From: Solirubrobacterales bacterium
Lineage (GTDB): Bacteria > Actinomycetota > Thermoleophilia > Solirubrobacterales > 70-9
Length of the DNA: 64,000 bases
Direction of reading: 5' to 3'
Assembly (NCBI GenBank): GCA_033856175.1
Contig: JAWVFK010000018.1
Span: 3,104-67,103, forward strand
The stretch's first letter is position 1, and the number at the start of each line of letters is the position of its first letter. Below the pieces are notes generated by a model, which was not told the DNA's origin, ran no database searches, and saw only the letters and a program-made list of their open reading frames with translations. The translations under genes were made by a program, and so were the position numbers. Positions 5,033 through 47,600 of the stretch are shown one piece after another.

Positions 5033-6993
5033 CAGCTCTTGCCGTCGCCGCGGCCCGGCGGTGCGGCGCCCCGGCGAGCCCGCCGCTGGCCGCCCCTGAC
5101 CGGTCGCGCGTTCGCGACCTTGCGCTTCGGCGCCTTCGGCCGCCCCGCCGTCTGCAGGAACTTCAGCGTCTGGACGTAGACGAGGTTCTTGTGCTTCTGG
5201 ACGATGTCGGCATCGCGCATCGCCTCGAGGAACTCCTCGGGGCCGTCGAAGTCCCGCACCCTGATGCGAACGCTGCCGAGCCCCTGGGCGACGTGGCTGT
5301 CCGAGCCGGCGCCGGCGACGATCCCGTACTTGGCGGCGAAGCGGACGGCCTCCTCGTTGAAGGCGGTGACCGCGATCCGCGGGTTGAAGACCTCGAGGAT
5401 GTCGATCTCCTCGACGACGTCCAGCAGATGCTCGTAGTCCGGCACCGAGTGGAAGCGGTCGAAGGGATGGGGCATGTAGACGAGCCCGCCCTGGGCGCGG
5501 ATCGCGGCGATCGTCTCGGCCATCGTCAGGCCGCGCTCGATCTTGCGCTCGAGAAAGAGGCCGATCACCTCACCCTGCTCGGCGGTCTTGATCTCCTCGG
5601 CGACGATCACCTCGATGCCGTCCATCCCGGCGGCGATCTCGCGCGCCTCGAGCGCGCCCGAGACCTCGTTGTGGTCGGTGATCGCGATCGCGCCGAGGCC
5701 ACGGTCGCGCGCCGTCTCCAGCAGGACCTCGACGGGCGTCGCGCAGTCGGGCGAGTGGTCGGTGTGCATGTGCAGGTCGACGTCGATGGTTGGCCGCGAG
5801 GCAAGCCGCCGGCGTATGGCGGCGCTGCCTTCGGAGACGTGGCGGCGGCCGACGACGCGGCCGTAGACGCCCTCGAGCTCGTCGGTGACGTCGGACCAGC
5901 TGCGTGAGGCGGCCCGCGAGCCGGCGTCGCGGAGCTCCCGGCGCAGCGCCGGGCTCTCGGCCAGCCGCACGAGCTGGCCGGCCAGCGTGTAGGGGTCGCC
6001 GGGAGGAAAGAGCAGCCCGCGCTCGCCTTCGCCCAGCAGCTCGGCATAGCGCTCGAGGTCGGATGCGACCGGCACGGCCCCGCCGGCCAGCGCTTTGCGG
6101 ATCAGCCCCGGCGCCGAGCGCGGACCGCCCGAGGCCGCGCAGAGGACATCGGCCGATGCGATGAGATGCTCGAGCGGGCCGGCCGCCGGGCCGACGAAGT
6201 CGATCCGCTCTCTGAGGGCGCGGGCGATCCGCGGCGGGGCGACCGCAGGATCGGGCAGCCAGACCGTCGCTCGCCATTCGAGCTCCAGCGGCAGCCGCCG
6301 CAACGCGCGCAGGAACAGTCGCAGCGCGCCGCGCTCCTCCTCGGCGGCGAAGAGGATCTCGAGGCGGCCGTCGTCGTTGCGACGCCGGGGCTCGCTATCG
6401 GCGCCGGGCGGCAGCAGCTCGTAGCCGCCGGGAAAGAAGCGCTCGAGCCGCTCTGCCGTGGTCTTCGAGCAGGCGGTGCGGGCATCGAGCCGGCCGAAGA
6501 AGATCTCGACCAACGGCCGCGCGACCTGGGTCGAGAGCACGCGCTCGGCAGGGTCGTGAAAGGTGCCGACGTTGAGCGAGTGCGAGTGGCGCAACGCAGC
6601 CGCCGAGGTGCTCGGCGCGAACGGCTCGTGGACGTGGACGACATCGATCGCCAGGCTGGCGAGCAGCGTCTCGAGGCTGCGGCCGACATCGATCGAGACC
6701 GAGGCGCCGCGCGAGCTCGAGCCGCTCGGCAGCGACAGCCCGGGGCCGACGCAGACCAGCTGCGGCTTGCCGTCCGCCGGCAGGATCGCGGCTGGGTCGG
6801 CGCCAGCGGCTCGAATCAGCCGGCGCCCTTCGCGGATCTCGGCGCGCGAGTCCGAGGGCGCGACGATGAGGACGCGGTGGCCGCGGGCGGCGAGCTCCGC
6901 CGAGGTGCGCTCGACGAACTCGTTGACCTCGTGCCGGTCCCCCCACTGCTGCGGGGTGACCTGCGCGATCGTCAGGCGGCCGTCGTCAGACAC
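5032..6993 (-). CDS. PimA-like GT4 glycosyltransferase fused to C-terminal PHP phosphoesterase domain
   Basis: The N-terminal ~400 aa parallels mycobacterial PimA (VHVHEPFAPSTS, GTFHDP, EERGALRLF, GGAVPVASDL). The C-terminal IDVDLHMHTDHSPDC..AITDHN..MPHPFD..GSDSH is PHP metal-binding histidine/aspartate signature. The ORF-track start (7758) would overlap ino1, so I take GTG 6993 (VSDDGRLTIAQVTP). Confidence 0.75.
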   Translation of the reverse strand: MSDDGRLTIAQVTPQQWGDRHEVNEFVERTSAELAARGHRVLIVAPSDSRAEIREGRRLIRAAGADPAAILPADGKPQLVCVGPGLSLPSGSSSRGASVSIDVGRSLETLLASLAIDVVHVHEPFAPSTSAAALRHSHSLNVGTFHDPAERVLSTQVARPLVEIFFGRLDARTACSKTTAERLERFFPGGYELLPPGADSEPRRRNDDGRLEILFAAEEERGALRLFLRALRRLPLELEWRATVWLPDPAVAPPRIARALRERIDFVGPAAGPLEHLIASADVLCAASGGPRSAPGLIRKALAGGAVPVASDLERYAELLGEGERGLLFPPGDPYTLAGQLVRLAESPALRRELRDAGSRAASRSWSDVTDELEGVYGRVVGRRHVSEGSAAIRRRLASRPTIDVDLHMHTDHSPDCATPVEVLLETARDRGLGAIAITDHNEVSGALEAREIAAGMDGIEVIVAEEIKTAEQGEVIGLFLERKIERGLTMAETIAAIRAQGGLVYMPHPFDRFHSVPDYEHLLDVVEEIDILEVFNPRIAVTAFNEEAVRFAAKYGIVAGAGSDSHVAQGLGSVRIRVRDFDGPEEFLEAMRDADIVQKHKNLVYVQTLKFLQTAGRPKAPKRKVANARPVRGGQRRARRGAAPPGRGDGKS

Positions 6994-34751: not shown

Positions 34752-34824
34752 GCCCCCGTAGCTCAGTTGGTAGAGCAGCGCCCTTTTAAGGCGAAGCGCG
34801 CCGGTTCGAGCCCGGCCGGGGGCA
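34752..34824 (+). tRNA. tRNA-Lys (TTT)
   Basis: gcccccgTAGCTCAGTTGGTAGAGCa..CTTTTAA anticodon loop (TTT)..gccggTTCGAGCccggc cgggggc a; hand-folded cloverleaf, 73 nt, no encoded CCA. Confidence 0.85.
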
Positions 34825-35048
34825 CTTGCAGCCGGGGCGGATTCGGACCACGACCTTGGGATCGTGAACTGTCCAGACCATGGCAGTCTCAGTTCGCTCA
34901 AGCGCCACCAATACTTGTCTGCGTGGCCTCGTGCGAGGCTTTTGCTTGGCGAGATCTCCGACATGGGGTCACGCAGAAGGGGAGGAACTGCAGATCTAGG
35001 CGCATCCGGGACCACCGGCACAGGCGCAGCTGGCTGTCGACCCAGCCG

Positions 35049-36401
35049 CTACCAGTAGATAGCGACGATCTCCGAGTCGATCAGGTGCTCCTCTCCCTCG
35101 TCGCCTCCTTCGCTGGCGGTGGCAAACAAACCGTCCTGGGAGGCGCTGGCCCTATAGCCGTGCTCGGACATCAGGCTGTCGCGCAGGTCTGAAAGGCGAG
35201 CTCGATCGAGCTGCCGCCCGGTCCGGTCCTGGACACGCTTGGTGATCGAGGCGAGGGTTTTTCGCTGCTGCTCGACGGATGAAAAATCAGGTTCAAGGGC
35301 GTCCAGTCCCACCGCCTCTGTGTCTTCCTCGGACCACTCCGTCTCCGCCTCGGCGGCGACGGCTTCGGCGTACTCGGCGATGAGCGCGCGCCCCTCCCCC
35401 GCCTGCGGGGATTCGGAGCCGGCTGCTCCCCTGGCTACGCCGGCGAGGAACTCCGGTCCCACGTCATTGATTGCGGCGGCGACGCTCGGGACGAATCGCT
35501 GGAGCAGGTCCACGACCTTCACGGGGTGCCAGCTATCCCTAAGTCCGTCCGTATTGAGGCGGAACATCACGAAAAATCTCGAGTCCGAGAAGAGGACGCG
35601 GCGCAGGTCACGCCAGAACAGCTCCGCTTCCGCGACCGCGACGACGTGCAAGGGCTCGCGATCAACATCCACGCCGTCATCGAGCTTGTCGAGGAGCTCC
35701 TTCGAGGCGAGGAACTCCCGGGCGTCGATCACGATTCGCTCGTATCGCGCGGACTCACCCCGTATCGGGACCAGGCCTGAAAGGAGCTCGTCGAAGACCC
35801 TGTTGACACCCCGGGCCTGAGCCACGTCCCGCGGGTCCATGGTGAAGAACTCCGGCGCCTCCTCGAAGAAACCGAGCATCGTGGCGATCATCAGGCTCGC
35901 CTGAAAGATCGACTCGGCGTCGAGGGTCACCTCGAGCTCGAGGAGTTCGCCACGAGCGAGTTTGGCGGCGTCGACCAGATGGGCCGTCTTGTCGTCATCG
36001 CGAATCTTTCTCAGATCGTCGAGCGACGCGGCTGCGGGGACGTCCCCCGCCCCGACGCTGTCGTGAATCCGCATCTTTCCGGTCTCATACTCGACGAGGT
36101 CCTTGAACGACGCTTGGACATTCGCTTTGCGGACTACCTGAGTGCCGCGCGTCCGCGAGCCCTCGAGCTGGGAGCGCAGGCCAGCGCCGCCGAGGTGCGT
36201 GTTCACGCCGACGGAGGCTCCAACCGAGCTGCGGGTGGTCTCTGAATCCGTGTCGATCAGCTCGGTTGGGATCGCTCCCTTGCGGGAGGCCAGCAGGCTA
36301 TAGACGCTTACCTCATCGAGATAGACGAACTCACGTCTGTCGCCTTTGGGCTGCTCCTGGCCCCGCACCTTCGCCATCATCCTTTTGATCCACTTGATCA
36401 C
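35049..36401 (-). CDS. hypothetical 450-aa protein, translationally coupled partner of the AAA+ ATPase
   Basis: GTG 36401 overlaps the AAA+ stop (GTGA) and has GGAGGA 6 nt upstream; ATG 36380 is an alternative. The ORF-track start 36572 lies inside the AAA+ gene. No catalytic motif recognised. N-terminal REFVYLDEVSVYSLLASRKG, a Gly/Ser-rich stretch, and an acidic C-terminus ending IVAIYW. Confidence 0.7.
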   Translation of the reverse strand: MIKWIKRMMAKVRGQEQPKGDRREFVYLDEVSVYSLLASRKGAIPTELIDTDSETTRSSVGASVGVNTHLGGAGLRSQLEGSRTRGTQVVRKANVQASFKDLVEYETGKMRIHDSVGAGDVPAAASLDDLRKIRDDDKTAHLVDAAKLARGELLELEVTLDAESIFQASLMIATMLGFFEEAPEFFTMDPRDVAQARGVNRVFDELLSGLVPIRGESARYERIVIDAREFLASKELLDKLDDGVDVDREPLHVVAVAEAELFWRDLRRVLFSDSRFFVMFRLNTDGLRDSWHPVKVVDLLQRFVPSVAAAINDVGPEFLAGVARGAAGSESPQAGEGRALIAEYAEAVAAEAETEWSEEDTEAVGLDALEPDFSSVEQQRKTLASITKRVQDRTGRQLDRARLSDLRDSLMSEHGYRASASQDGLFATASEGGDEGEEHLIDSEIVAIYW

Positions 36402-37633
36402 TGTTGGTCCTCCGTGCTTCGGCGGGGCGCCTGTTCCAGCTGGCGTGCGCGGCTGTCTCGAACCCGTTCGTAGCCACCCCAGCAATCCTCTGTCTTCAGC
36501 TGCCCCCGGCCATCCGCGACCGCGAGCAGCGCCGCCTCGTTCCAGATCGCCGCGAGCTGAGCCGAGGTCCACCCTGCCGTCAGCCTCCCCAGCTCGTCCA
36601 ACGGCGGGCTATCAGCGACGTTGAGGCGCCTAGACGCCGCCGCGAGGATATTCTCGCGGTCCTCGTCCATCGGGTAGGGGAACCGAATCTCCCAGTCGAA
36701 GCGCCCAGGCCGCCGCAACGCCTTGTCGATGTCGTCGACCCGGTTGGTCGCCGCTACGACGATGACCTTGTCATCGCGCGTGAAGCCATCCATCAGCCCG
36801 AGCAGCTGGGCGACGACGCGGCGCGAGCCCTCGTAGGACTCTTCTCGTCGGCCGGCGACGCTATCGATCTCGTCGAAGAAGATGATCGAGCGGTCCTGCA
36901 TTGCGGCGTCCTCGAAGACGCGCCGGAGAATCGCCTCGCTGTCTCCCTGCCATTTGCTGAAGATCTGCGGCCCGTTGATCACATAGAAGGCGGCCCCCGA
37001 CTCCTTGGCGATGATCCGGGCGAGCATAGTCTTCCCGGTACCCGGGGGCCCCGTCATTAGCACCCCCCTTACCGGACGGGCTCCCGTCTGCTTGAGGAGT
37101 GCCTTCTTTCCCGGAGAAAGCTCGATCAGCTCCTTGGCTCGGTCGACGACGCTCTCCATCCCGCCGTAGTCATCGAACGTCTCGGTCAGCTCGCTGGGAT
37201 CGACCTTCAGATGCTCGATCGACACACCATCGTCGTCCCTGAATAGCGAGATTGACTCGCGCGTTAGAACGGCGACGACCTCGCCGTCCTTTAGCTCGAC
37301 CGTGTTTCCGACCTCATAGTCGGTGTCATTGGTCGGGGTGAGCACGAGGCTCCCGTTCACCGAGACGATGGTTTTCTCGTCGCCTTTGGTGCGAATGACC
37401 CCAACGTCCGGCGTGTCGGGCCAGAGCCGATCGGGCGCAGGAACGGCTATGGACTCGTCGGGATCAACTAATAGGAGGTCGCCGACCTCGAACTCAAACG
37501 GTGTCGCAGACGCCTCGAGGGATGCCACCTTGCCTGAGCGAAATTCGACGAAGAGCTCGTAGCCAGCGGCTTCGACCGCCCGAACCCTCGCCAGCGCTCC
37601 CTCTGCAGTCCGTGTCGCGCGCACCGCCTCCAT
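36398..37633 (-). CDS. classical-clade AAA+ ATPase (Cdc48/FtsH-like single AAA module) with unassigned ~190-aa N-domain
   Basis: Walker A GPPGTGKT, Walker B IIFFDEID, second region of homology ATNRVDDIDKALRRPGRFD; 411 aa. Confidence 0.85.
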   Translation of the reverse strand: MEAVRATRTAEGALARVRAVEAAGYELFVEFRSGKVASLEASATPFEFEVGDLLLVDPDESIAVPAPDRLWPDTPDVGVIRTKGDEKTIVSVNGSLVLTPTNDTDYEVGNTVELKDGEVVAVLTRESISLFRDDDGVSIEHLKVDPSELTETFDDYGGMESVVDRAKELIELSPGKKALLKQTGARPVRGVLMTGPPGTGKTMLARIIAKESGAAFYVINGPQIFSKWQGDSEAILRRVFEDAAMQDRSIIFFDEIDSVAGRREESYEGSRRVVAQLLGLMDGFTRDDKVIVVAATNRVDDIDKALRRPGRFDWEIRFPYPMDEDRENILAAASRRLNVADSPPLDELGRLTAGWTSAQLAAIWNEAALLAVADGRGQLKTEDCWGGYERVRDSRARQLEQAPRRSTEDQQ

Positions 37634-37721
37634 CAGAGCGCTGGCCCCAGACTAGACCGTCGACCCGCCATAGTCGCAGCATCGATCCCATGGTCGGGCA
37701 CAGATCGGAGGACGGCGGTCA

Positions 37722-38000
37722 CTAAATGTGGGCGTTGAGCCACTGCCATTGTTGCTCGGTAAGCCACCCCTGGTACGGCCGGGTGACCTTGCAGATAAAG
37801 AGCTTGTCATTGGCATCGATCAGGCTATTGCTGCGCAAGGCATCGACCCACTGCTGCGGAGCGGACGAAGTCTCCACGAACCACTGCGAGTAAAGCGGCC
37901 GGATGAAGGCCGATGCATGCTTCTCGATGTAGTTCTTGACCTTCGTGTAGCTAGACGGCCGCTCGAGGCCGCTCAGGTCGTAGGAGATGAGTAGGACCAT
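37722..38000 (-). CDS. hypothetical 92-aa protein, possible Cas2/VapD-like ferredoxin fold
   Basis: MVLLISYDLSG..KVKNYIEKHA..SQWFVETS..DKLFICKV mimics the Cas2 beta1(YD[IVL])-alpha-beta-beta pattern. Perfect AGGAGG 5 nt upstream of the ATG. Fold assignment is by eye only. Confidence 0.55.
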   Translation of the reverse strand: MVLLISYDLSGLERPSSYTKVKNYIEKHASAFIRPLYSQWFVETSSAPQQWVDALRSNSLIDANDKLFICKVTRPYQGWLTEQQWQWLNAHI

Positions 38001-38009
38001 GACCTCCTG

Positions 38010-38216
38010 CTACTTGTGACGGCGGTTGTATGGCGAGCGGTTGGGGGGCTTCAGCGAGATCTTCTTCTCGGAGGCCTTGGCCTGGACGGCCGGCTTGGTG
38101 CGGCCGAGCTTGAGGCCGATCACGCCGGTCGGAGTGTTCCCCTTCGCCAGCTTGCGGAGCTGGCGGACCTGGGCAGGGGTCCAGAGCTTGCCGGTGTTGC
38201 GGGTGGATTTGGGCAT
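38010..38216 (-). CDS. small basic Myb/SANT-like HTH protein (68 aa)
   Basis: KLWTPAQVRQLRKLAKGNTPTGVIGLKLGRTKPAVQAKA looks like a W-x2-x-E/Q..L..G..IA..LGRT Myb-like repeat, with a basic tail. Its stop is 9 nt before the next gene. Confidence 0.55.
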   Translation of the reverse strand: MPKSTRNTGKLWTPAQVRQLRKLAKGNTPTGVIGLKLGRTKPAVQAKASEKKISLKPPNRSPYNRRHK

Positions 38217-38255
38217 TGACTTTCGCGCCTTTCTCGCCTGACAGCTGGCGAATTC

Positions 38256-38331
38256 GAGTTCGTTATGACGAATCGTAGCAGGTTTTTCGATGTATGCAAG
38301 AATGGCGAAGAGGAGTTCGTGATGACGAATC
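38256..38331. promoter_or_regulatory. duplicated operator-like element in divergent promoter region
   Basis: gagttcgtTatgacgaatc (38256-38274) and gagttcgtGatgacgaatc (38313-38331): a 19-nt direct repeat with one mismatch. Each copy contains the inverted repeat TTCGT-N4-ACGAA. The copies are 57 bp apart. Confidence 0.55.
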
Positions 38332-39176
38332 AGGTCAACGAGCGGCAGTTATCTGTCTTCGAGCAGCTTCGTGACTCGGAGCCGAGCCTGGCCGACACCG
38401 AAATCGTGCGCAGGCTCTGCGAGCAGCTTCTGGATGAGGCCGACGTGCGGCCGCCGGTCCCGGTCGAGATGCTTGCCTCGCTGCGCGGGATCGCCAAGGT
38501 GCAGTCGGACGATCAGCCCTACGCGGGAATGTTGAGTCCTGAGGACGGGCGACTGGTGGTTACGGTCAGGCGAGGAGACGGGCACCGGCGCCGGCGTTTC
38601 ACCGTCTGCCATGAGGCGGCGCACACGCTCTTTCCGGGCTTCAGCGAGCGCCGCCAGTACCGCTGCAACGGCGAACGGACGTGGACCGAGAAGATGTGTG
38701 ACCTAGCGGCCGCAGAGCTGTTGCTCCCGAGGCGCTTCTTTGAGGCCGACTTGAGGCAGGCGGGCTTCGGGCTTGAGGCCGTAGAGGAGCTCGCCCGCGA
38801 CTACCAGGCGAGCATCGAAGCGACGGCGCGGCGAAGCGTCGCGCTCTGGAGCGCGCAGGAGGCGATGCTGATCGTGCTGCGCGCCCGTCACAAGCCGTCG
38901 GAGGCCGGACGCGAGGACGAGCTGCCGCCGAAGCTCAGGGTCGAGTATTCGTTCGGGCGCGGAGATTGGCCCTTCGTACTGCGCCACAAGTCCGCGAGCG
39001 CGAGCGGGCTCGGACGCGCGCTTGAGGGGGAGATCCTGGACGAGATCAGCGAGATCGACGAGCTCTGCGTCGGTTCGGCCGGCCGGGTGCGGGTCCAGGC
39101 ACGGCGCTACGGCGCCGATGGACGTGTGATCGCCTTGATCAACAAGACCACCGACAACGCAGGAGGTGAAGGTTGA
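38322..39176 (+). CDS. ImmA/IrrE-family zinc metallopeptidase (DUF955-like) with C-terminal extension
   Basis: HEAAH (HExxH) in RFTVCHEAAHTLFPG followed by AAELLLPRRFF, typical of ImmA/IrrE. ATG 38322 has GAGGAG 6 nt upstream. The ORF-track ATG 38265 is in frame and cannot be excluded. Confidence 0.8.
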   Translation: MTNQVNERQLSVFEQLRDSEPSLADTEIVRRLCEQLLDEADVRPPVPVEMLASLRGIAKVQSDDQPYAGMLSPEDGRLVVTVRRGDGHRRRRFTVCHEAAHTLFPGFSERRQYRCNGERTWTEKMCDLAAAELLLPRRFFEADLRQAGFGLEAVEELARDYQASIEATARRSVALWSAQEAMLIVLRARHKPSEAGREDELPPKLRVEYSFGRGDWPFVLRHKSASASGLGRALEGEILDEISEIDELCVGSAGRVRVQARRYGADGRVIALINKTTDNAGGEG

Positions 39177-39580
39177 CCACGAAGGAGAGCGTGGGGAGCC
39201 GGATTAAGAAACGTCGCGAAGAGAAGGGGATGAGCGCAACGAAGCTAGCTGAGAGGGCCGGCATCTCGAAGAGCTATCTATCGGAGCTCGAAGGCGCGAA
39301 CGGCGGGGCAAAGAAGCCATCGGCTGAGCTCCTGTATGAGATCGCCAGCGCGCTCGGCGTGGCGATGTCCGACCTACTGGGAAGGCCGATCATCAACAAT
39401 GGGGCCAGCAATAAAACGCGGCCGCCGTCGCTGATCAAGTTCGGGAAGAAGATGGGACTTCCCGAAGCGGACCTGCAGATGCTCGAGCAGATCCAGTTCC
39501 GCGGCGAGCCGCCCCAGACGCCGGAACGCTGGAGCTTTATCTACCAGGCGATCAAGGGCAGCGCCTCGATGGACGCGTAA
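39173..39580 (+). CDS. XRE-family HTH transcriptional regulator
   Basis: IKKRREEKGMSATKLAERAGISKSYLSELE is the Cro/C1-type HTH. TTG start overlapping the ImmA stop (TTGA); 135 aa. Confidence 0.85.
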   Translation: MTTKESVGSRIKKRREEKGMSATKLAERAGISKSYLSELEGANGGAKKPSAELLYEIASALGVAMSDLLGRPIINNGASNKTRPPSLIKFGKKMGLPEADLQMLEQIQFRGEPPQTPERWSFIYQAIKGSASMDA

Positions 39581-39851
39581 TCATCTAAGGGTGAGGAACC
39601 GCGCCGAATGTGCGAAGGCTCCTGGTTTCCGGGCCTTTGCGAGTAAGCCATGCTCAGACCTGACCGAGCGGGTCTTGCGGTGCCGCACCGCCGGCTAGGG
39701 GATCCGCAGGCGCCATCCAGGGACGTCGACGACCTTGTGAGCACCCCGCTTCCGGGGCCGCTTAAGTGGCGGGGACCCGCTACGTGTCTCGGGGCGACGG
39801 ACGGCTAGTCGATGGAGTGCGTCTACTCGCGCGTAAGCCTTGTTGACGCGC

Positions 39852-40685
39852 TCACGCCAGATTCAGAGCGGCTTTCAAACCGCTCACCACTCGGTACATG
39901 TGCTGGCCAACATTCTTTCGCAGCCGAGCCTCGGCGGCAGGCGTTCGCTTCTGGTGCGCCGCGCCAATACGATCCTTGTTAATTCGGCTTAGCACCTGCG
40001 CGAGCACGGTATCCGGGTGATTCGGCGTCTGGATGTTTGAAAACGCAATGGCCAGCCGACCTAATGACATCCTGTCGATCGTCTGATTAGTCAGAGCCCG
40101 ACGCCGGCCCGCCTTATTCAGGACCGTAATCCTGCCATCCGCAATCCCTTTCCGCAAGTACTTTGCACTCTCGATCTGCAGAACCTGACAGGCATCCTCG
40201 AACCCTTCGCGCCATTGTGATCGGTCGAATTGTTCATAGACCGGGCCAAGGAGCCGTTTGAGTTTCTTCGGGAGAGAGCCACGCACGGGAAGCTCAACGT
40301 TTACCGCAAGATCGCGTGCCACCAGCGCTTCCCGAACACCGTGCTTATCCGAGACACACACTCCTACGCCCATCTTCTGGAGACGGGCGTCATCCTCATT
40401 GCTGCGGAGAACGGAATCTGGCATTGCGAGCACGATTCGTGTGTCAGTCGTGCATGACCGACCGAAGCGAGACCATTCCTCAGCTCGCTCCAGCGATAGC
40501 TTGCCAGTCACTTCGACAAACACGCGGGTCGGCGGCCTGCGACATCGTAGAGTCGGGGTGTACGGGTATGCCGGATCGGCCGGTTCAGCTTTAACCGAAT
40601 ACCCATTGTCCGCATACCACGATGCCACGGCCTCGGCATGCTCCAATAGCTCTTCCGGAACCGTCAGAAAGCCGTGTCCGGCCAT
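39852..40685 (-). CDS. hypothetical 277-aa protein; N-terminal alpha/beta domain plus C-terminal helical domain with HEPN-like Rx4H
   Basis: The ORF starts 4 nt after the ParB-like gene's stop. R239-IGAA-H244 (NKDRIGAAHQKR; nt 39954-39971) fits the HEPN Rx4-6H motif near the end of an all-helical region. The N-terminal strands (TLRCRR, RVFVEVTGK, RIVLAMPD, VGVCVSD) suggest a nuclease-like alpha/beta fold (weak). Confidence 0.55.
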   Translation of the reverse strand: MAGHGFLTVPEELLEHAEAVASWYADNGYSVKAEPADPAYPYTPTLRCRRPPTRVFVEVTGKLSLERAEEWSRFGRSCTTDTRIVLAMPDSVLRSNEDDARLQKMGVGVCVSDKHGVREALVARDLAVNVELPVRGSLPKKLKRLLGPVYEQFDRSQWREGFEDACQVLQIESAKYLRKGIADGRITVLNKAGRRRALTNQTIDRMSLGRLAIAFSNIQTPNHPDTVLAQVLSRINKDRIGAAHQKRTPAAEARLRKNVGQHMYRVVSGLKAALNLA

Positions 40686-40689
40686 CGGA

Positions 40690-41631
40690 TTACCGCTTCA
40701 GAACTTTAGCGATCACGTGTTGCAGCTCTTCCAACATGTTGCGAAACTCATCATCCACTTCGAACGACCGCTCCAGTTGCGCGTGGAGGCGGGTCAACAG
40801 TCTCGAGACAAGCTGCTGCGACCCGTGCTGATAGTCGATCCCTTCGACAGTGGACTCGAAGGCGCGTTTGATCGTGAAGCGCGGTTCCGTGATCAACCGT
40901 CGCGTAACTTTGCGTGCTGTGGCGGCCGAGACCTGCTCACGATCAACGGCACGACCAATTCGCATGAGCTGGCGGGGCTCCACCGTGTTGGTCTCGGTCC
41001 GATCCTTGAACTTATCCACTAGCGCCCTGCGAAGCTGCTCTTCTTCATCGCGGTTAATGATCTCCCGGCTACGAAGTGCAGCTGCTCCCTTACTCGCCTC
41101 CAACACATGATCAACAGTGAGGCTCTGCTGTGAGCGTGGCAGCTCCAGCTGGGCCATCAGTTCGTTGTGGTACTCGTCAGGCAGGGCCAGAAGCTGTCGG
41201 AGGCGACGTACCTCGCCCCGTGAGATCGAAGCGATCTGGGCCAATTCCTTCTCGCTCGGCTTGCGGCCCTGCCGCTGAGCGTATTCGTGCTCAAGCTCCT
41301 GCAACTTGTAGGCGGTCGGCAGAGGGTCCCAATCCTTGCGAGCGTTGTGGATCGCGAACATCATCATGATGTTCTGGAGCCGATCGGGCTCGGCTTGGAC
41401 GACGACCGGGATGCGGGGCAGTCCGAGCTTCAAGGCACATCGCCAGCGACGCTCTCCGTCGAGTAGGACATGTCTCCTGCCCTTCTCGAAGACACTGAGA
41501 GGCACGAGGACTCCCTGCAGCTTGATGCTGTCCTCAAGCGCTTGAAGCTCAGCCTCATGAAAGATGAGCCGAGGGTTATCCGGGTTCGGATCGATGTCCC
41601 TCGGGGCAAGAAGAGTCTGCGAGCTAGCCAT
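40690..41631 (-). CDS. ParB/Sulfiredoxin-like N-terminal-domain protein with helical C-terminal extension
   Basis: IDPNPDNPRL..LEDSIKLQGVLVPLSV..LLDGERRWRCA carries the ParB-box GxRR motif; 313 aa. No partition partner (parA) is nearby. Confidence 0.8.
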   Translation of the reverse strand: MASSQTLLAPRDIDPNPDNPRLIFHEAELQALEDSIKLQGVLVPLSVFEKGRRHVLLDGERRWRCALKLGLPRIPVVVQAEPDRLQNIMMMFAIHNARKDWDPLPTAYKLQELEHEYAQRQGRKPSEKELAQIASISRGEVRRLRQLLALPDEYHNELMAQLELPRSQQSLTVDHVLEASKGAAALRSREIINRDEEEQLRRALVDKFKDRTETNTVEPRQLMRIGRAVDREQVSAATARKVTRRLITEPRFTIKRAFESTVEGIDYQHGSQQLVSRLLTRLHAQLERSFEVDDEFRNMLEELQHVIAKVLKR

Positions 41632-41718
41632 ATCGCGACCCGCTCAATGCCTCCGCGCAGGCCGATAATCGAGCGCCCTCCATCCAGCCAGAGAGGCCAG
41701 AAGTCCTTTGCAGGGACC

Positions 41719-41731
41719 TCAAATGATTTGA
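41719..41731. promoter_or_regulatory. perfect AT-rich palindrome upstream of dam-like gene
   Basis: TCAAAT-g-ATTTGA at 41719-41731, 14 nt before ATG 41745. It overlaps tgataaat (an extended -10-like element) at 41729-41736. Confidence 0.35.
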
Positions 41732-41744
41732 TAAATGCAGCACC

Positions 41745-42626
41745 ATGTCGATTTCCTTGCCCTCAGCCGACGCCGACCAGCGTCACGATATCCGGAAGCC
41801 ACCTGCTTATCAGATACTCAAGTGGATCGGCAACAAGCAGCGCTTTGCGGCACTCATCGCAAGGAACCTGCCCGCCGAGTACGGCCGCTATATCGAGCCG
41901 TTTGTGGGGACGGGGGCCGTGCTTGCAGCGATGCAACCGGAGAAGGCGGTCGCCGGGGATACGCTCAAACCGCTGATCGATCTTTGGAAACTGGTGCAAA
42001 ATGACCCTGACGAGCTAGCCGCCCACTACAAGATCTGCTGGGAGGCCCTGCTGTCGCATGGCAAAGCAGCATTCGCCGAGATCCTAAGCCGCTACAACGC
42101 GGAACCAAACCCAGGGGATTTGCTGGCTCTCAGCCGGTCTTGTTATGGCGGGGTCGTGCGGTTCACGAAGAACGGGACAATGAGCACGCCGATGGGACCG
42201 CACCGCCCAATCGACCAGATGCGGCTTAGGGAGCATCTCTATGCGTGGCAGGAGCGCGTGTCCGAAACTAAGTTCAGATGCCAGGACTACTCGGTGAGCC
42301 TGGCAGATGCCGCGGCAGGCGATGTCGTCTATTGCGATCCTCCATACGCCTATAGCCAGGCAATCTTGTACGGGGCGCATTCGTTCGACCTCGATGCACT
42401 CTGGGCGAGCATCCAGACCACCGTTGATCGTGGCGCATTGGTGGCCGTATCGATCAATGGCCACCGTAGAAATGGAAAGCTCAAGCTATCTACCCCAATC
42501 CCCGACGGGATCTTTCAGCGGGAGATGCTTATCGAGCGAGGGGGTTGCATGCTCCGGCGCTTCCAGCTAGCGGGCAAGACAGTCGCAGGTGAGCACGTAA
42601 CGGATCGTCTGCTCTTTAGCTGGTAG
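41745..42626 (+). CDS. Dam-type (D12 class) N6-adenine DNA methyltransferase
   Basis: ILKWIGNKQ (K-W-x-G-x-K), motif I EPFVGTGAV, motif IV DPPY (VYCDPPYAY); 293 aa. Confidence 0.88.
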   Translation: MSISLPSADADQRHDIRKPPAYQILKWIGNKQRFAALIARNLPAEYGRYIEPFVGTGAVLAAMQPEKAVAGDTLKPLIDLWKLVQNDPDELAAHYKICWEALLSHGKAAFAEILSRYNAEPNPGDLLALSRSCYGGVVRFTKNGTMSTPMGPHRPIDQMRLREHLYAWQERVSETKFRCQDYSVSLADAAAGDVVYCDPPYAYSQAILYGAHSFDLDALWASIQTTVDRGALVAVSINGHRRNGKLKLSTPIPDGIFQREMLIERGGCMLRRFQLAGKTVAGEHVTDRLLFSW

Positions 42627-42816
42627 CCACCGCGACGCCCGGGCGCTTTTGGAGGGCGACCGGGGCTCTGTACAGGTCTTGCGGCGATCATCGAGTACAC
42701 CCTCGGCCCCGCGTTGCGTGAGGCTGAAGACTTATGCCCGTACCGGGCCGTCGCGGCCTTTGCCGGGGTTACAGCTTGCAAGGTGAGTACGGCGGCTGAG
42801 CCGGTCGGTCTCGTAC

Positions 42817-43983
42817 CTACCGATTGCCCTTGGCGCGGTTGTGTGTCACGCACAGCATCTCGCAGTTGGCGAGATCCGTGTCTCCGCCCTTCGACCAGGC
42901 CGTCACGTGGTCGGCGTCCATCTCGTCCTGCTTGTAGATACGCGTCTTGTTGGCGCTGTCACTGATGGCGCATAGCGGGCAGTTCGACCCGCCGTCGACC
43001 GTCGCCTTCTGAGTCTGCTGCTCGTAGGCAGCCCGCTTCGTGTTGTCGTCGAACAGCCGGACCGCCAGCAGCTGCTTGTCCTTCTTGCCGCCGAGCAGGT
43101 ACTCGTAGATCCCCTTGATGCTGATCACCGCCGGGTCAGCACGAAGCGTATCGACGTCGGCGTCGATCGCCGCCGCGTTGTACGAGGTCGAGTGGTACGT
43201 CTCGTACAGCCGTCCCCACTCCAGCCCCCGCATCTCTCTGTCGGGTGGGCGCGTGAAGACACTGCCGATCCAGTCGATGACTGAGGTGAAGTACGTCTTC
43301 AGGCCGGCGATGTCGCCATCCTGGCGGTGCTGCGCGAGGTAGGCGTCGACGCTCGCCCCCTGGGAGGCCGAGGCCCAATTCAGCGCAACCTCCAAGACCT
43401 CCTGCCGTTTGGGGTCGCCCTTGATGTAGGAGGACCACTTCTGCATGTTTGCGTTCTGCGAATTGCTGAATTCGGCCTTTGCCTTCGTGATGAACGGCCC
43501 GGAGTAGATCGCGTTGAGCACTTCCTGACGGTTCAACGGAATCCCCGCGATGTTAATCGTCTGGAACCAGTCCTTGATCTCTTTCTCGTCGCCCCGGCAG
43601 TGCCATACGAGCAACTTGCTTTCCATGAGCTTCTGCTGCACCTCTCTCGGTAGTGACGAGAACGTTTGCTCCTTGCCATCGACGCGGATCGCAAACTTGC
43701 CGGTGACAAACCGCCCGATGCTCGTGATTCTTTGCTGACCGTCAAGGACCTCCAGACGGTCGCCGACGACGTTGAAGTAGATCAGGCCGATCGGGTAGCC
43801 TTTGAGCAGCGACTCGATTACGGAGACATCCCTCCTTCCGTCGTTGTAAATGTAATTGCGCTGGTACTCGGGCTGGATCACGAGCTTGCCGGCCAGACCG
43901 AATAGCCCCTTGCCCTCGAGCTCGTTGTAAACGAACCCCTCGACAATCTTCTCGACCGTGTAGGGGTGGAGGTCCGTCTTCAC
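42817..43983 (-). CDS. DUF262 (GmrSD N-domain/ParB-like NTPase) - HNH endonuclease fusion
   Basis: [11 protein letters not shown] and DGQQR are DUF262 signatures. The C-terminal [28 protein letters not shown] is an HNH with a Cys pair. The GTG start overlaps the upstream MTase stop (GTGA). Confidence 0.82.
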
Positions 43984-45281
43984 GAAGCGCCCCTCCGACG
44001 GATGAACAGCCGCTGGTAAGCAGATTGGATCACGTGGCCTTTATCGTTGATGAAGTAGTTCTTCTTACCGTCATTCATGGCAAGGTTCGCGTTCTCGTTG
44101 GTCTTGCTCCCCGACGAACCAGTTGGCGTGCCGTCCTGGCGCATTTCCCGGTAGTCATCGTACTTTTTGAAATCCGGAACTTCATCGTGACATCCGCGCT
44201 GGGTCGCTCCGAGGATCTCGAACTGGTCGGGATCATGCTTATTTAGGAAGGTAATCGGCACGCCAATGATCCCGTCGTAGTCGCTGGGAATCGCGTCGCT
44301 GAACGGAACTTCTATGGCGTCATAGTTGTCATACGCCCTGTACCCGATACCCCGAACCTCCTTGTGCTTGGAGAATTTCTTGTTGTCGGCCATCGACATG
44401 AGCTGGAGCGGTTCGTGTCGACGGCCGTGGTCAATGTTGGTAAACCACTGGACGCCGGAAACCCGAATCATGCCCTCGCGCCGGTCGGTTGCGGCCGCCG
44501 TGTCCTCATAGGGACTCCCAAAATGGGTCGCATTTCCTGGGAACCCCTTGCCAAGCCACATCCGGCTCTGCTGGATGAGGGGGAAGATGTCTGAATACGT
44601 GATTGCGTTCTGATGGCCAATAATTGCGAACTTTGCACCGCCCTGAATGATCCACTCGACGAAGTGCCGGAAGAGGCTGAACGGAGGGTTGGTGGTGACG
44701 ATATCGGCCTCGTCCCGCAGTGCTGTCACTTCCTCGCTACGAAAGTCGCCGTCACCTTCGAGGTAGTCCCACCGGAGGTCGTCGATGTTGATGACCTCGT
44801 CGTCATTCATGTCCTTCCTCTCCAAGACGAACTTCTTGCCGTTAGTCCGTGTCTTGGTGGCGTCGAACTTTGCGTCCTCTGTCTCAAACAGCGTTGGCGC
44901 GTAAAACTCCCCAGCCGGGTGGCTGTCGGGCGCATATGACGTCGAGATCAGTTTCTTGAGCCCGAAGTTTGTGAAGTGGAGCGCGAAGAACTTGGTGAAG
45001 TTGCTCCACTCCGGATCGTCGCACGGCAGCAGGATCACCTTGTCACGAAAAACAGCCGGGTCGTATTCAATGTAGGCGTTCATCTCGCGCTCGACGTCAG
45101 CCCACTGGGTGTAGAACTCGTCCTTCCTGGCAGCCTTCGCCGCGTTTAAGCGGCGCCCCTTACCCTCGCTTGCTGTCGTGGAATGCACGCGCCCGACGAT
45201 AGTGGAACGGGGGGACGTGATCGGCAGGTTCTGCAGGGAGCATTGCTGCACGCTCTTATGGCCGAGCGTGCACGCACTCAC
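43980..45281 (-). CDS. N6-adenine DNA methyltransferase, EcoRI-methylase-like
   Basis: KDEFYTQ near the N-terminus and catalytic TNPPF ([11 protein letters not shown]). Lowest GC of the window. The true start may be downstream of ATG 45281 (for example the in-frame GTG near 45187). Confidence 0.75.
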
Positions 45282-45483
45282 TGCTCGAAGCTGCGTCTGA
45301 TCAGCGGTCAGAAGTCGACGTCGCCGGCCGAACCGAGTGGACGGCCGAAGTCGGACCGCCCCTCCAGCAAGCCGATTTCCTCAACCTCAGCGAGGCGTCG
45401 CCGGTTGGTCACGCCCTCTGCCGACTCTCGTCAGGCGGCTCCGCCGAAATCGGAGACCTCGCGTTGAGTTCGTTGCTCGCCTC

Positions 45484-47600
<2,117 letters not shown>

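Follow-up and report, generated by a model that had tools for sequence, protein, structure and literature searches.

A DUF262-HNH nuclease gene overlapping an EcoRI-family adenine methyltransferase gene in a Solirubrobacterales island: a probable restriction-modification module of the BanLI kind

The overlapping methyltransferase and nuclease genes

The 64,000-nucleotide stretch of Solirubrobacterales DNA analysed here (contig JAWVFK010000018.1 of assembly GCA_033856175.1; the whole stretch is called the window below) carries two adjoining minus-strand genes that, we believe, make up a restriction-modification (R-M) module. The upstream gene, M (43980-45281), is a 433-amino-acid (aa) open reading frame (ORF) for an EcoRI-family N6-adenine DNA methyltransferase, and the downstream gene, R (42817-43983), encodes a 388-aa protein with a DUF262 domain (a ParB/GmrS-like nucleoside triphosphatase, or NTPase), a helical middle and a zinc-ribbon HNH nuclease. 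As a preliminary description of this DNA had claimed, the two overlap by 4 nucleotides (nt): the GTG start of R runs into the TGA stop of M in a GTGA read directly from the sequence (43980-43983, minus strand), and R is probably translationally coupled to M through it. The window's own M and R contain no simple-sequence repeats (SSRs) or disruptions; a sigma-70 promoter scan found none, that consensus being uninformative in this high-GC organism. Overall, the locus is an unremarkable and apparently undamaged representative of a family that is widespread and already catalogued.

The profile searches agree with this assignment. M matches the Pfam family EcoRI_methylase (PF13651; E 1.2e-112) over profile positions 2-344 of 345, and R matches both GmrSD_N/DUF262 (PF03235; E 1.5e-19) at aa 35-160 (43504-43881, minus strand) and HNH (PF01844; E 4.9e-7) at aa 335-388 (42820-42981, minus strand). 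The motifs quoted in the preliminary description are all present: the M ORF contains KDEFYTQ and TNPPF, the DUF262 domain carries QPEYQR and DGQQR (the latter at 43729-43743), and the HNH domain has the pattern CPLC...DADH...NC..LC..HN, with C335, C338, D358, H359, N373, C378, H381 and N382. The catalytic motif IV of M, NPPF, lies at aa 198-201 of the 433-aa ORF (44679-44690, minus strand) and is invariant in the homologue alignment as N167 P168 P169 F170. In PADLOC, whose MTase_II and REase_II models are derived from REBASE, M matches MTase_II along its full length (PDLC03297; E 8.9e-79), and residues 19-387 of R match REase_II (PDLC03418; E 8.1e-86) over profile positions 17-371 of 372; weaker PADLOC matches of R are to NsnA, PD-T4-2_A and HEC-05/06. 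An NCBIfam scan returned no family for either protein.

The start of M as listed is probably too far upstream. In the 433-aa ORF the Pfam match does not set in until residue 45, and it and the homologues start only about 14-22 residues ahead of DEFYTQ. The true start is therefore more likely to be codon 32, a GTG (window 45188), which gives 402 aa and a better fit to the homologues. The pair stands apart in base composition: M has a G+C content of 57.1% and R one of 60.2%, and the window taken as a whole has 68.9%. The bin 44001-45000 has the minimum among all 1-kb bins (0.556), so the earlier claim that the pair has the lowest GC in the window stands, and the accompanying figure of 47% does not: the lowest 200-bp window has 52%.

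The motifs of both proteins are intact. Across 58 sequences of R, Q37 P38 E39 Y40 Q41 R42 and D81 G82 Q83 Q84 R85 are invariant, and the four zinc cysteines, D358, H359, N373, H381 and N382 are invariant or nearly so (alignment A1); the invariant NTPase motifs of the DUF262 domain suggest that R uses a nucleoside triphosphate (NTP). In 67 homologues of M, DEFYT, CDDP and TNPPFS are invariant (alignment A3). In an AlphaFold2 model of R (mean predicted local distance difference test score, pLDDT, 83.9; predicted template modelling score, pTM, 0.49) the N-domain is alpha/beta, the middle is helical and a small beta-beta-alpha unit forms the C-terminus, and no further known DNA-reading domain was seen in it. 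Foldseek matches of this model in the PDB are weak, and no match reaches E <= 0.001; BrxU leads (7p9k; E 2.5e-3), and the next are CTP-binding ParB N-domains, SspE and the Gme HNH nickase. When the sequences themselves were compared with solved structures, R matched BrxU alone (E 0.24 over 29 residues) and M matched nothing. The AlphaFold2 model of M (window 43983-45188), built on an alignment made without plasmid and phage loci, is confident (pLDDT 87.6, pTM 0.85), and the variable segment V1 described below falls in its one internal low-confidence stretch. Its fold search also gave weak matches, the best in the PDB being M.BseCI (E 0.02), and it appears that no solved structure represents the methylase family to which M belongs.

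Spread of the pair and exchange of methyltransferase cassettes

Homologues of R number more than 8000 in a database clustered at 90%, and a full HMMER scan of 1.84 billion representatives gave 399 clusters (50% identity) at E <= 1e-30; the best 120 homologues, the window's own protein aside, are nearly all 388 aa long and 77-86% identical to it. We assembled 82 loci, 80 from genomes and two from the plasmid and phage sources named below. An EcoRI-family M lies upstream of R on the same strand in 79 of them, and the remaining three are accounted for by contig ends or an insertion. Judged by this recurrence, the two-gene arrangement is not a product of chance, and the premise of the preliminary description, that a methylase does not normally accompany DUF262 nucleases, fails for this clade. 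The source phyla include Actinomycetota, Bacteroidota, Bacillota, Pseudomonadota, Chloroflexota, Patescibacteria and Planctomycetota, among others. A DUF262 protein stands beside an EcoRI-family adenine methyltransferase in the annotation of plasmids from Actinomycetota, Lactobacillales, Moraxella, Aeromonas and Variovorax, Flavobacterium phage laban6-1 carries the same pair, and distant homologues of R (35-38% identity) on Aeromonas, Variovorax and Ligilactobacillus plasmids adjoin an EcoRI-family methyltransferase.

From these loci, 71 M/R pairs (70 loci plus the window) were extracted and aligned. The distance from the stop of M to the start of R falls between -23 and +20 nt in 61 of the 71 and is exactly -4 in 30. 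Larger gaps are due to frameshifts, SSR splits or guest genes; tandem M genes, considered as a further cause of these gaps, were rejected, the ORF extraction having yielded one M per locus. The guest genes (at L029, L038, L040/L044, L043 and L034) encode a 420-aa protein that is ATPase-like by eye, a protein of RhuM-like appearance and unknown proteins of 227-308 aa. R itself is undamaged at every one of the 82 loci, even at the five where M is split. M is frameshifted beside an intact R at L012 and also at L016 and L018, two copies on one Acidimicrobiales chromosome that share a single frameshift, for which either an assembly error or a real M-off state may be the explanation. A 688-aa protein, P0165, combines EcoRI_methylase, GmrSD_N and HNH in one polypeptide and may be a natural M-R fusion, and P0269 is a similar fragment.

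The two proteins differ sharply in how they vary. R is conserved over its whole length, with identities to the window mostly of 0.55-0.9 in 20-residue blocks, three blocks at 0.41-0.44 and almost no gaps. M consists of a conserved core (0.5-0.8 in the flanks of V1) interrupted by two variable segments: V1 (aa 241-280; 44442-44561, minus strand), with a mean identity to the window of 0.28-0.32, and V2 (aa 361-425; 44007-44201, minus strand), with a mean identity of 0.10-0.18 and 20-45% gaps. Identity in both segments is bimodal, and they vary independently of one another and of R. Clustering of the 71 pairs gave 16 types of V1, 29 types of V2 and 55 combinations, and the mean identity of R rises from 0.68 to only 0.70 when a cassette is shared. 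The locus with the closest R (L004, 82%) has V1 in common with the window and a different V2; a V2 in common with the window at 65-82% is found in L048, L063, L026 and L036, which belong to other phyla, and in the Flavobacterium phage, R being just 61-64% identical there.

The clearest case comes from two Bacteroidales metagenome-assembled genomes (MAGs), L021 and L022. Their R proteins are one residue apart (A273T) and their M cores about 99% identical, with both V1 and V2 replaced. At the DNA level, a module of about 2.7 kb that comprises the M core and R (L021:4476-7188, with L022 at the same coordinates) is 92-100% identical between the two except for two patches of about 50%, one at V1 (5469-5546) and one at V2 (5745-5987), and the flanks beyond it are unrelated. 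Read in this way, the comparison shows cassette exchange inside a mobile module. Likewise, the R proteins of L057 and L066 are 97% identical and both of their M cassettes differ. From their position in the C-terminal half of M and from this shuffling, V1 and V2 are the putative target-recognition parts that would set DNA specificity. If they do, the divergence of R that accompanies a change of M specificity in classical Type IIP and Type IIS systems is absent here.

Long SSRs point in the same direction: they occur only in or just before M, and none is in R. Two lie inside the M gene, an (AG)15 at L014:5585-5614 and a (GA)12 at L019:1044-1067. At both of these loci two alternative C-terminal cassettes in different frames come after the repeat, each preceded by a conserved GVPITFLDK..PDQFE segment, an arrangement that looks like frameshift-driven switching of the M cassette with R intact downstream. 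The others are an (AC)11 in a Streptococcaceae MAG (L034:4283-4304), close to the 3' end of M, and an (AACGC)13 just 5' of M in a Pasteurellaceae genome (L055:4766-4830), and both are reminiscent of the repeats behind phase variation in Type III mod genes.

Interpretation and genomic setting

The published record bearing on this architecture is short. The literature search turned up only two relevant papers, both related to BanLI, and none on how the nuclease of this family works; papers on H. pylori, a halovirus, a cyanophage, C. jejuni and Menshen treat DUF262 in other contexts. In Bifidobacterium animalis subsp. lactis, the EcoRI-like M.BanLI, which was aligned there with M.EcoRI, methylates RTC(6mA)GG on one strand only, and the R beside it is a protein of 43.5 kDa (PMC3990576). 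Methylation by M.BanLI raised transformation 1.8-fold, and M and R together in E. coli gave an efficiency of plating of about 0.1 for P1vir (PMC3990576). Its authors treated the system as Type II(S) and explained the one-strand methylation by the loss of a second methylase (PMC3990576). For a sister strain of the same subspecies, the gene of the REBASE Type II restriction enzyme assigned to RTCAGG is annotated as a 'DUF262 domain-containing protein' (PMC13091528). The window pair has the sequence features that BanLI and the PADLOC Type II models share, namely a PF13651 methyltransferase with its motifs, an R of about 390 aa with DUF262 and HNH domains, and M directly upstream of R. The architecture is thus, in essence, already in REBASE, through BanLI and the PADLOC Type II models, and the novelty that the preliminary description had seen in it falls away.

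Overall, we think it probable, at roughly 70%, that the pair is a methylation-protected R-M module of the BanLI kind. The preliminary description had offered two readings, a classical methylation-protected pair or a module in which the methyltransferase marks self and the nuclease senses foreign modification. The PADLOC Type II matches, the pairing across phyla and BanLI favour protection by methylation, and the word 'classical' is doubtful since R does not co-vary with the M cassettes; nothing in our data speaks for a nuclease that senses foreign modification. As for the mechanism, M would mark host DNA at a short motif set by the exchangeable V1 and V2, a motif that, like the one of BanLI, is probably asymmetric with methylation on a single strand, and R, made by coupling to M through the GTGA, would attack DNA without that mark. 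R is unlikely to read the motif itself, because it stays constant when the M cassettes change and because only M has hypermutable repeats, and it most likely has no sequence specificity of its own. Instead, M bound at an unmethylated site may recruit or license R, following the logic of Type III and Type IIG enzymes with the parts on two chains, and the DUF262 domain may serve as an NTP-operated switch or clamp. That M directs or licenses R at unmethylated sites is a possibility to which we would give slightly less than even odds. Such direction by M would explain the one-strand methylation of BanLI, the near-identical R proteins beside different M cassettes and the confinement of repeats to M. 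More tentative still is the general proposal that DUF262-HNH/EcoRI-methylase pairs form a distinct NTP-dependent class of R-M systems, in which a specificity-free nuclease is aimed or licensed in trans by a monomeric methylase whose two cassettes, recombining and at times phase-variable, alone define the target; Type III logic would then have been assembled out of unrelated components. For the locus at hand, we infer protection by methylation and an R that relies on M and makes use of NTP.

Several alternatives have to be weighed against the protected module aimed by its methylase. R might act independently, as in a classical Type II system, reading the same motif as M and being blocked by its methylation, with DUF262 as a DNA-binding or dimerisation module. 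REBASE and PADLOC do list the pair under Type II (PMC13091528), many Type II systems have a comparable M-to-R operon with a tight junction, and the authors of the BanLI work took theirs as Type II(S) (PMC3990576). We nonetheless regard an independent R as unlikely. It has no variable region, and near-identical copies (one residue apart, or 97% identical) stand beside M proteins with different V1 and V2; switching of M by SSRs would be suicidal next to an independent and specific nuclease; one-strand methylation at the asymmetric BanLI site leaves one daughter duplex unprotected (PMC3990576); and the NTPase motifs are invariant. The same DUF262 domain with DGQQR and a His-Me C-terminus gives R its resemblance to GmrSD, BrxU and SspE, to which the weaker PADLOC matches to NsnA, PD-T4-2_A and HEC-05/06 may be added, and on these grounds R could be a Type IV enzyme that attacks hypermodified foreign DNA, with M present for a separate purpose such as epigenetic marking, anti-restriction or protection against other systems. 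This is highly improbable: it leaves the near-obligate linkage to one methyltransferase family across phyla and the diversification of the M cassettes without explanation, methylation by M.BanLI improved rather than reduced transformation (PMC3990576), at 388 aa R falls far short of GmrSD-type enzymes in length and carries the canonical HNH PF01844 in place of DUF1524, and its full-length PADLOC match is to REase_II (E 8e-86) and not to the Type IV models.

We give even less weight to the pair as a mainly selfish cassette for addiction or mobility, in which the HNH nuclease would drive spread or post-segregational killing, M would be the antidote and defence would count for little. The module of about 2.7 kb does have sharply defined borders in settings unrelated to one another, many small plasmids carry it, as do phages, its presence among relatives is sporadic, and restriction by BanLI is weak (PMC3990576). 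All of this is compatible with R-M function, addiction being a known property of R-M systems; a diversifying and phase-variable M fits defence or epigenetic switching better, and a split M beside an intact R argues against R as a constitutive toxin.

At the same time, a number of observations tell against the module and the aiming of R by M as we have set them out. Guest genes separate M and R in about seven loci, and translational coupling is therefore not obligatory in the family. Where M is split in a metagenome assembly, an assembly error or a minority phase variant may be the cause, and the P0165 fusion could be an indel artefact at the 4-nt overlap. V1 and V2 could instead be surfaces selected by phage inhibitors. 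The restriction effects of BanLI are small, and relief by passage through an R-M host was not shown there (PMC3990576). Moreover, the membership of R.BanLI in this family rests on size and annotation in two papers and not on alignment; the BanLI primer table was tried as a homology check and gave no confirmation, the primers lying outside the informative coding ends.

Regardless of the specific mechanism, the family is very large, it moves between phyla, plasmids and phages, and it is routinely annotated as 'Type II'. In practical terms it is a barrier to transformation, as in Bifidobacterium. If the nuclease is indeed targeted by the methylase, the pair would be a compact system of two proteins that could be given a new specificity through cassette exchange, R-M typing pipelines would be mislabelling such pairs, and the ParB-like NTP switch would have found another use in immunity.

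The setting of the pair in this genome is that of an acquired island. M and R form the right-hand end of a lower-GC segment (34826-45483; 61.4% GC) flanked on the left by tRNA-Lys (34752-34825) and on the right by thiSG (45484-46455), for which neither an integrase nor an att repeat was found. A close homologue of R was present in none of 18 other genomes of the host family, one of which has a weak match to the DUF262 domain (E 8.4e-10, 32% identity); among the 30 relatives scanned, one genome in the same order carries a close homologue (72% identity). Because of its lower GC and its absence from the 18 other family genomes, the M-R pair is, on this comparative evidence, foreign to the host and horizontally acquired. 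For this genome, then, it is a further defence cassette gained by acquisition, housed in a small island that adjoins tRNA-Lys.

At the tRNA-Lys end lie a DUF6414 protein and an IetA-like AAA ATPase (35049-37633, minus strand; DUF6414 E 6.5e-40 for a 507-aa ORF, PADLOC IetA E 1.6e-33), whose ORFs as listed overlap by about 175 nt, so that one start is probably further downstream; the ATPase comes without an IetS protease, and the two may be a variant defence pair. Next come an IrrE/ImmA-like metallopeptidase and an XRE helix-turn-helix regulator (38265-39580, plus strand; PADLOC capP E 2.6e-26 and capH E 4.2e-16) with a 4-nt overlap of their own. A 29-nt direct repeat there (38246-38274 and 38303-38331) spans two ATGACGAATC start regions that are in frame, and is a possible operator. 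A 277-aa protein of unknown function and a 313-aa ParB_N protein identified by Pfam (39852-41631, minus strand) are divergent from a Dam-type methyltransferase (41745-42626, plus strand; PADLOC MTase_II PDLC03290, E 1.1e-49), and these three may be a second modification or restriction module, although no nuclease domain was recognised in the group (39852-42626).

The Dam-type gene is the second methyltransferase that the preliminary description had placed in the island, and it matches PF02086 as well as TIGR00571, the latter above its cut-off. Beside the M-R pair in the 82 related loci, the sole match to any other island gene is one IetA-like ATPase (L054). Because the island neighbours do not travel with the pair, the Dam-type methyltransferase is, by this measure, an unrelated neighbour and no part of the M-R system. 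Matches on E. coli, Klebsiella and Salmonella plasmids, considered as an argument about compatibility with Dam, were rejected, as they cover the DUF262 domain only.

Comparison with known systems

GmrSD, BrxU and SspE are DUF262 proteins with His-Me nucleases (PMC4619093, PMC8565348, PMC9646914), and R resembles them in its N-terminal DUF262 domain with QR and DGQQR, in its C-terminal beta-beta-alpha-Me nuclease and in having BrxU as its best structural match. SspE offers the further parallel of working together with a self-modification module; no sspABCD or dnd modification genes were found among the island ORFs in the Pfam, PADLOC and NCBIfam scans. The differences are considerable. The solved BrxU and SspE chains run to about 560-770 aa and R to 388 aa; the nuclease of R is a zinc-ribbon HNH of the canonical kind (PF01844), with no DUF1524-type (EHxxP) nuclease detectable by Pfam; R is linked to an N6-adenine methyltransferase; and the DNA that it targets is probably unmodified. 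Judged by its domains, R is not a member of the GmrSD family: it lacks DUF1524, is linked to a methyltransferase and is only 388 aa long.

The Type IIG/IIL enzymes of the MmeI family share with the present pair, as we read it, a single recognition module for methylation and cleavage, an asymmetric site methylated on one strand and shifts of specificity through the target-recognition domain. They are single polypeptides with a PD-(D/E)XK nuclease and no NTPase, whereas here there are two proteins and the nuclease carries a ParB-like NTPase.

The Type III systems (EcoP15I and EcoP1I, with Mod and Res subunits) are closer in logic. As in these, a constant restriction subunit is combined with a methylase whose recognition region is swapped, methylation falls on one strand of an asymmetric site (BanLI), the methylase gene of some relatives carries phase-variable repeats, and there is an NTPase in the nuclease. 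The constant R, the swapped region of M and the SSRs in M only (L014, L019, L034 and L055) are seen in relatives of the window pair. The parts themselves are different. M is of the EcoRI family and not a beta-class Mod, R combines ParB/GmrS-like and HNH domains in place of a superfamily 2 helicase and a PD-(D/E)XK nuclease, the gene products of the window type are much smaller, and the dependence of R on M is a supposition here. Neither protein matched a helicase or a Type III model in Pfam or PADLOC. By composition, with neither helicase nor PD-(D/E)XK nuclease nor beta-class Mod identified, the pair is not a Type III system.

BanLI is the nearest counterpart. The M cassettes of the window probably differ from those of M.BanLI, the motif is probably not RTCAGG, and the host is a different, high-GC organism. 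In both, an EcoRI-like N6-adenine methyltransferase is followed in the same gene order by a DUF262-annotated R of about 43.5 kDa, and the filing of BanLI as Type II agrees with the PADLOC assignment of the pair described here.

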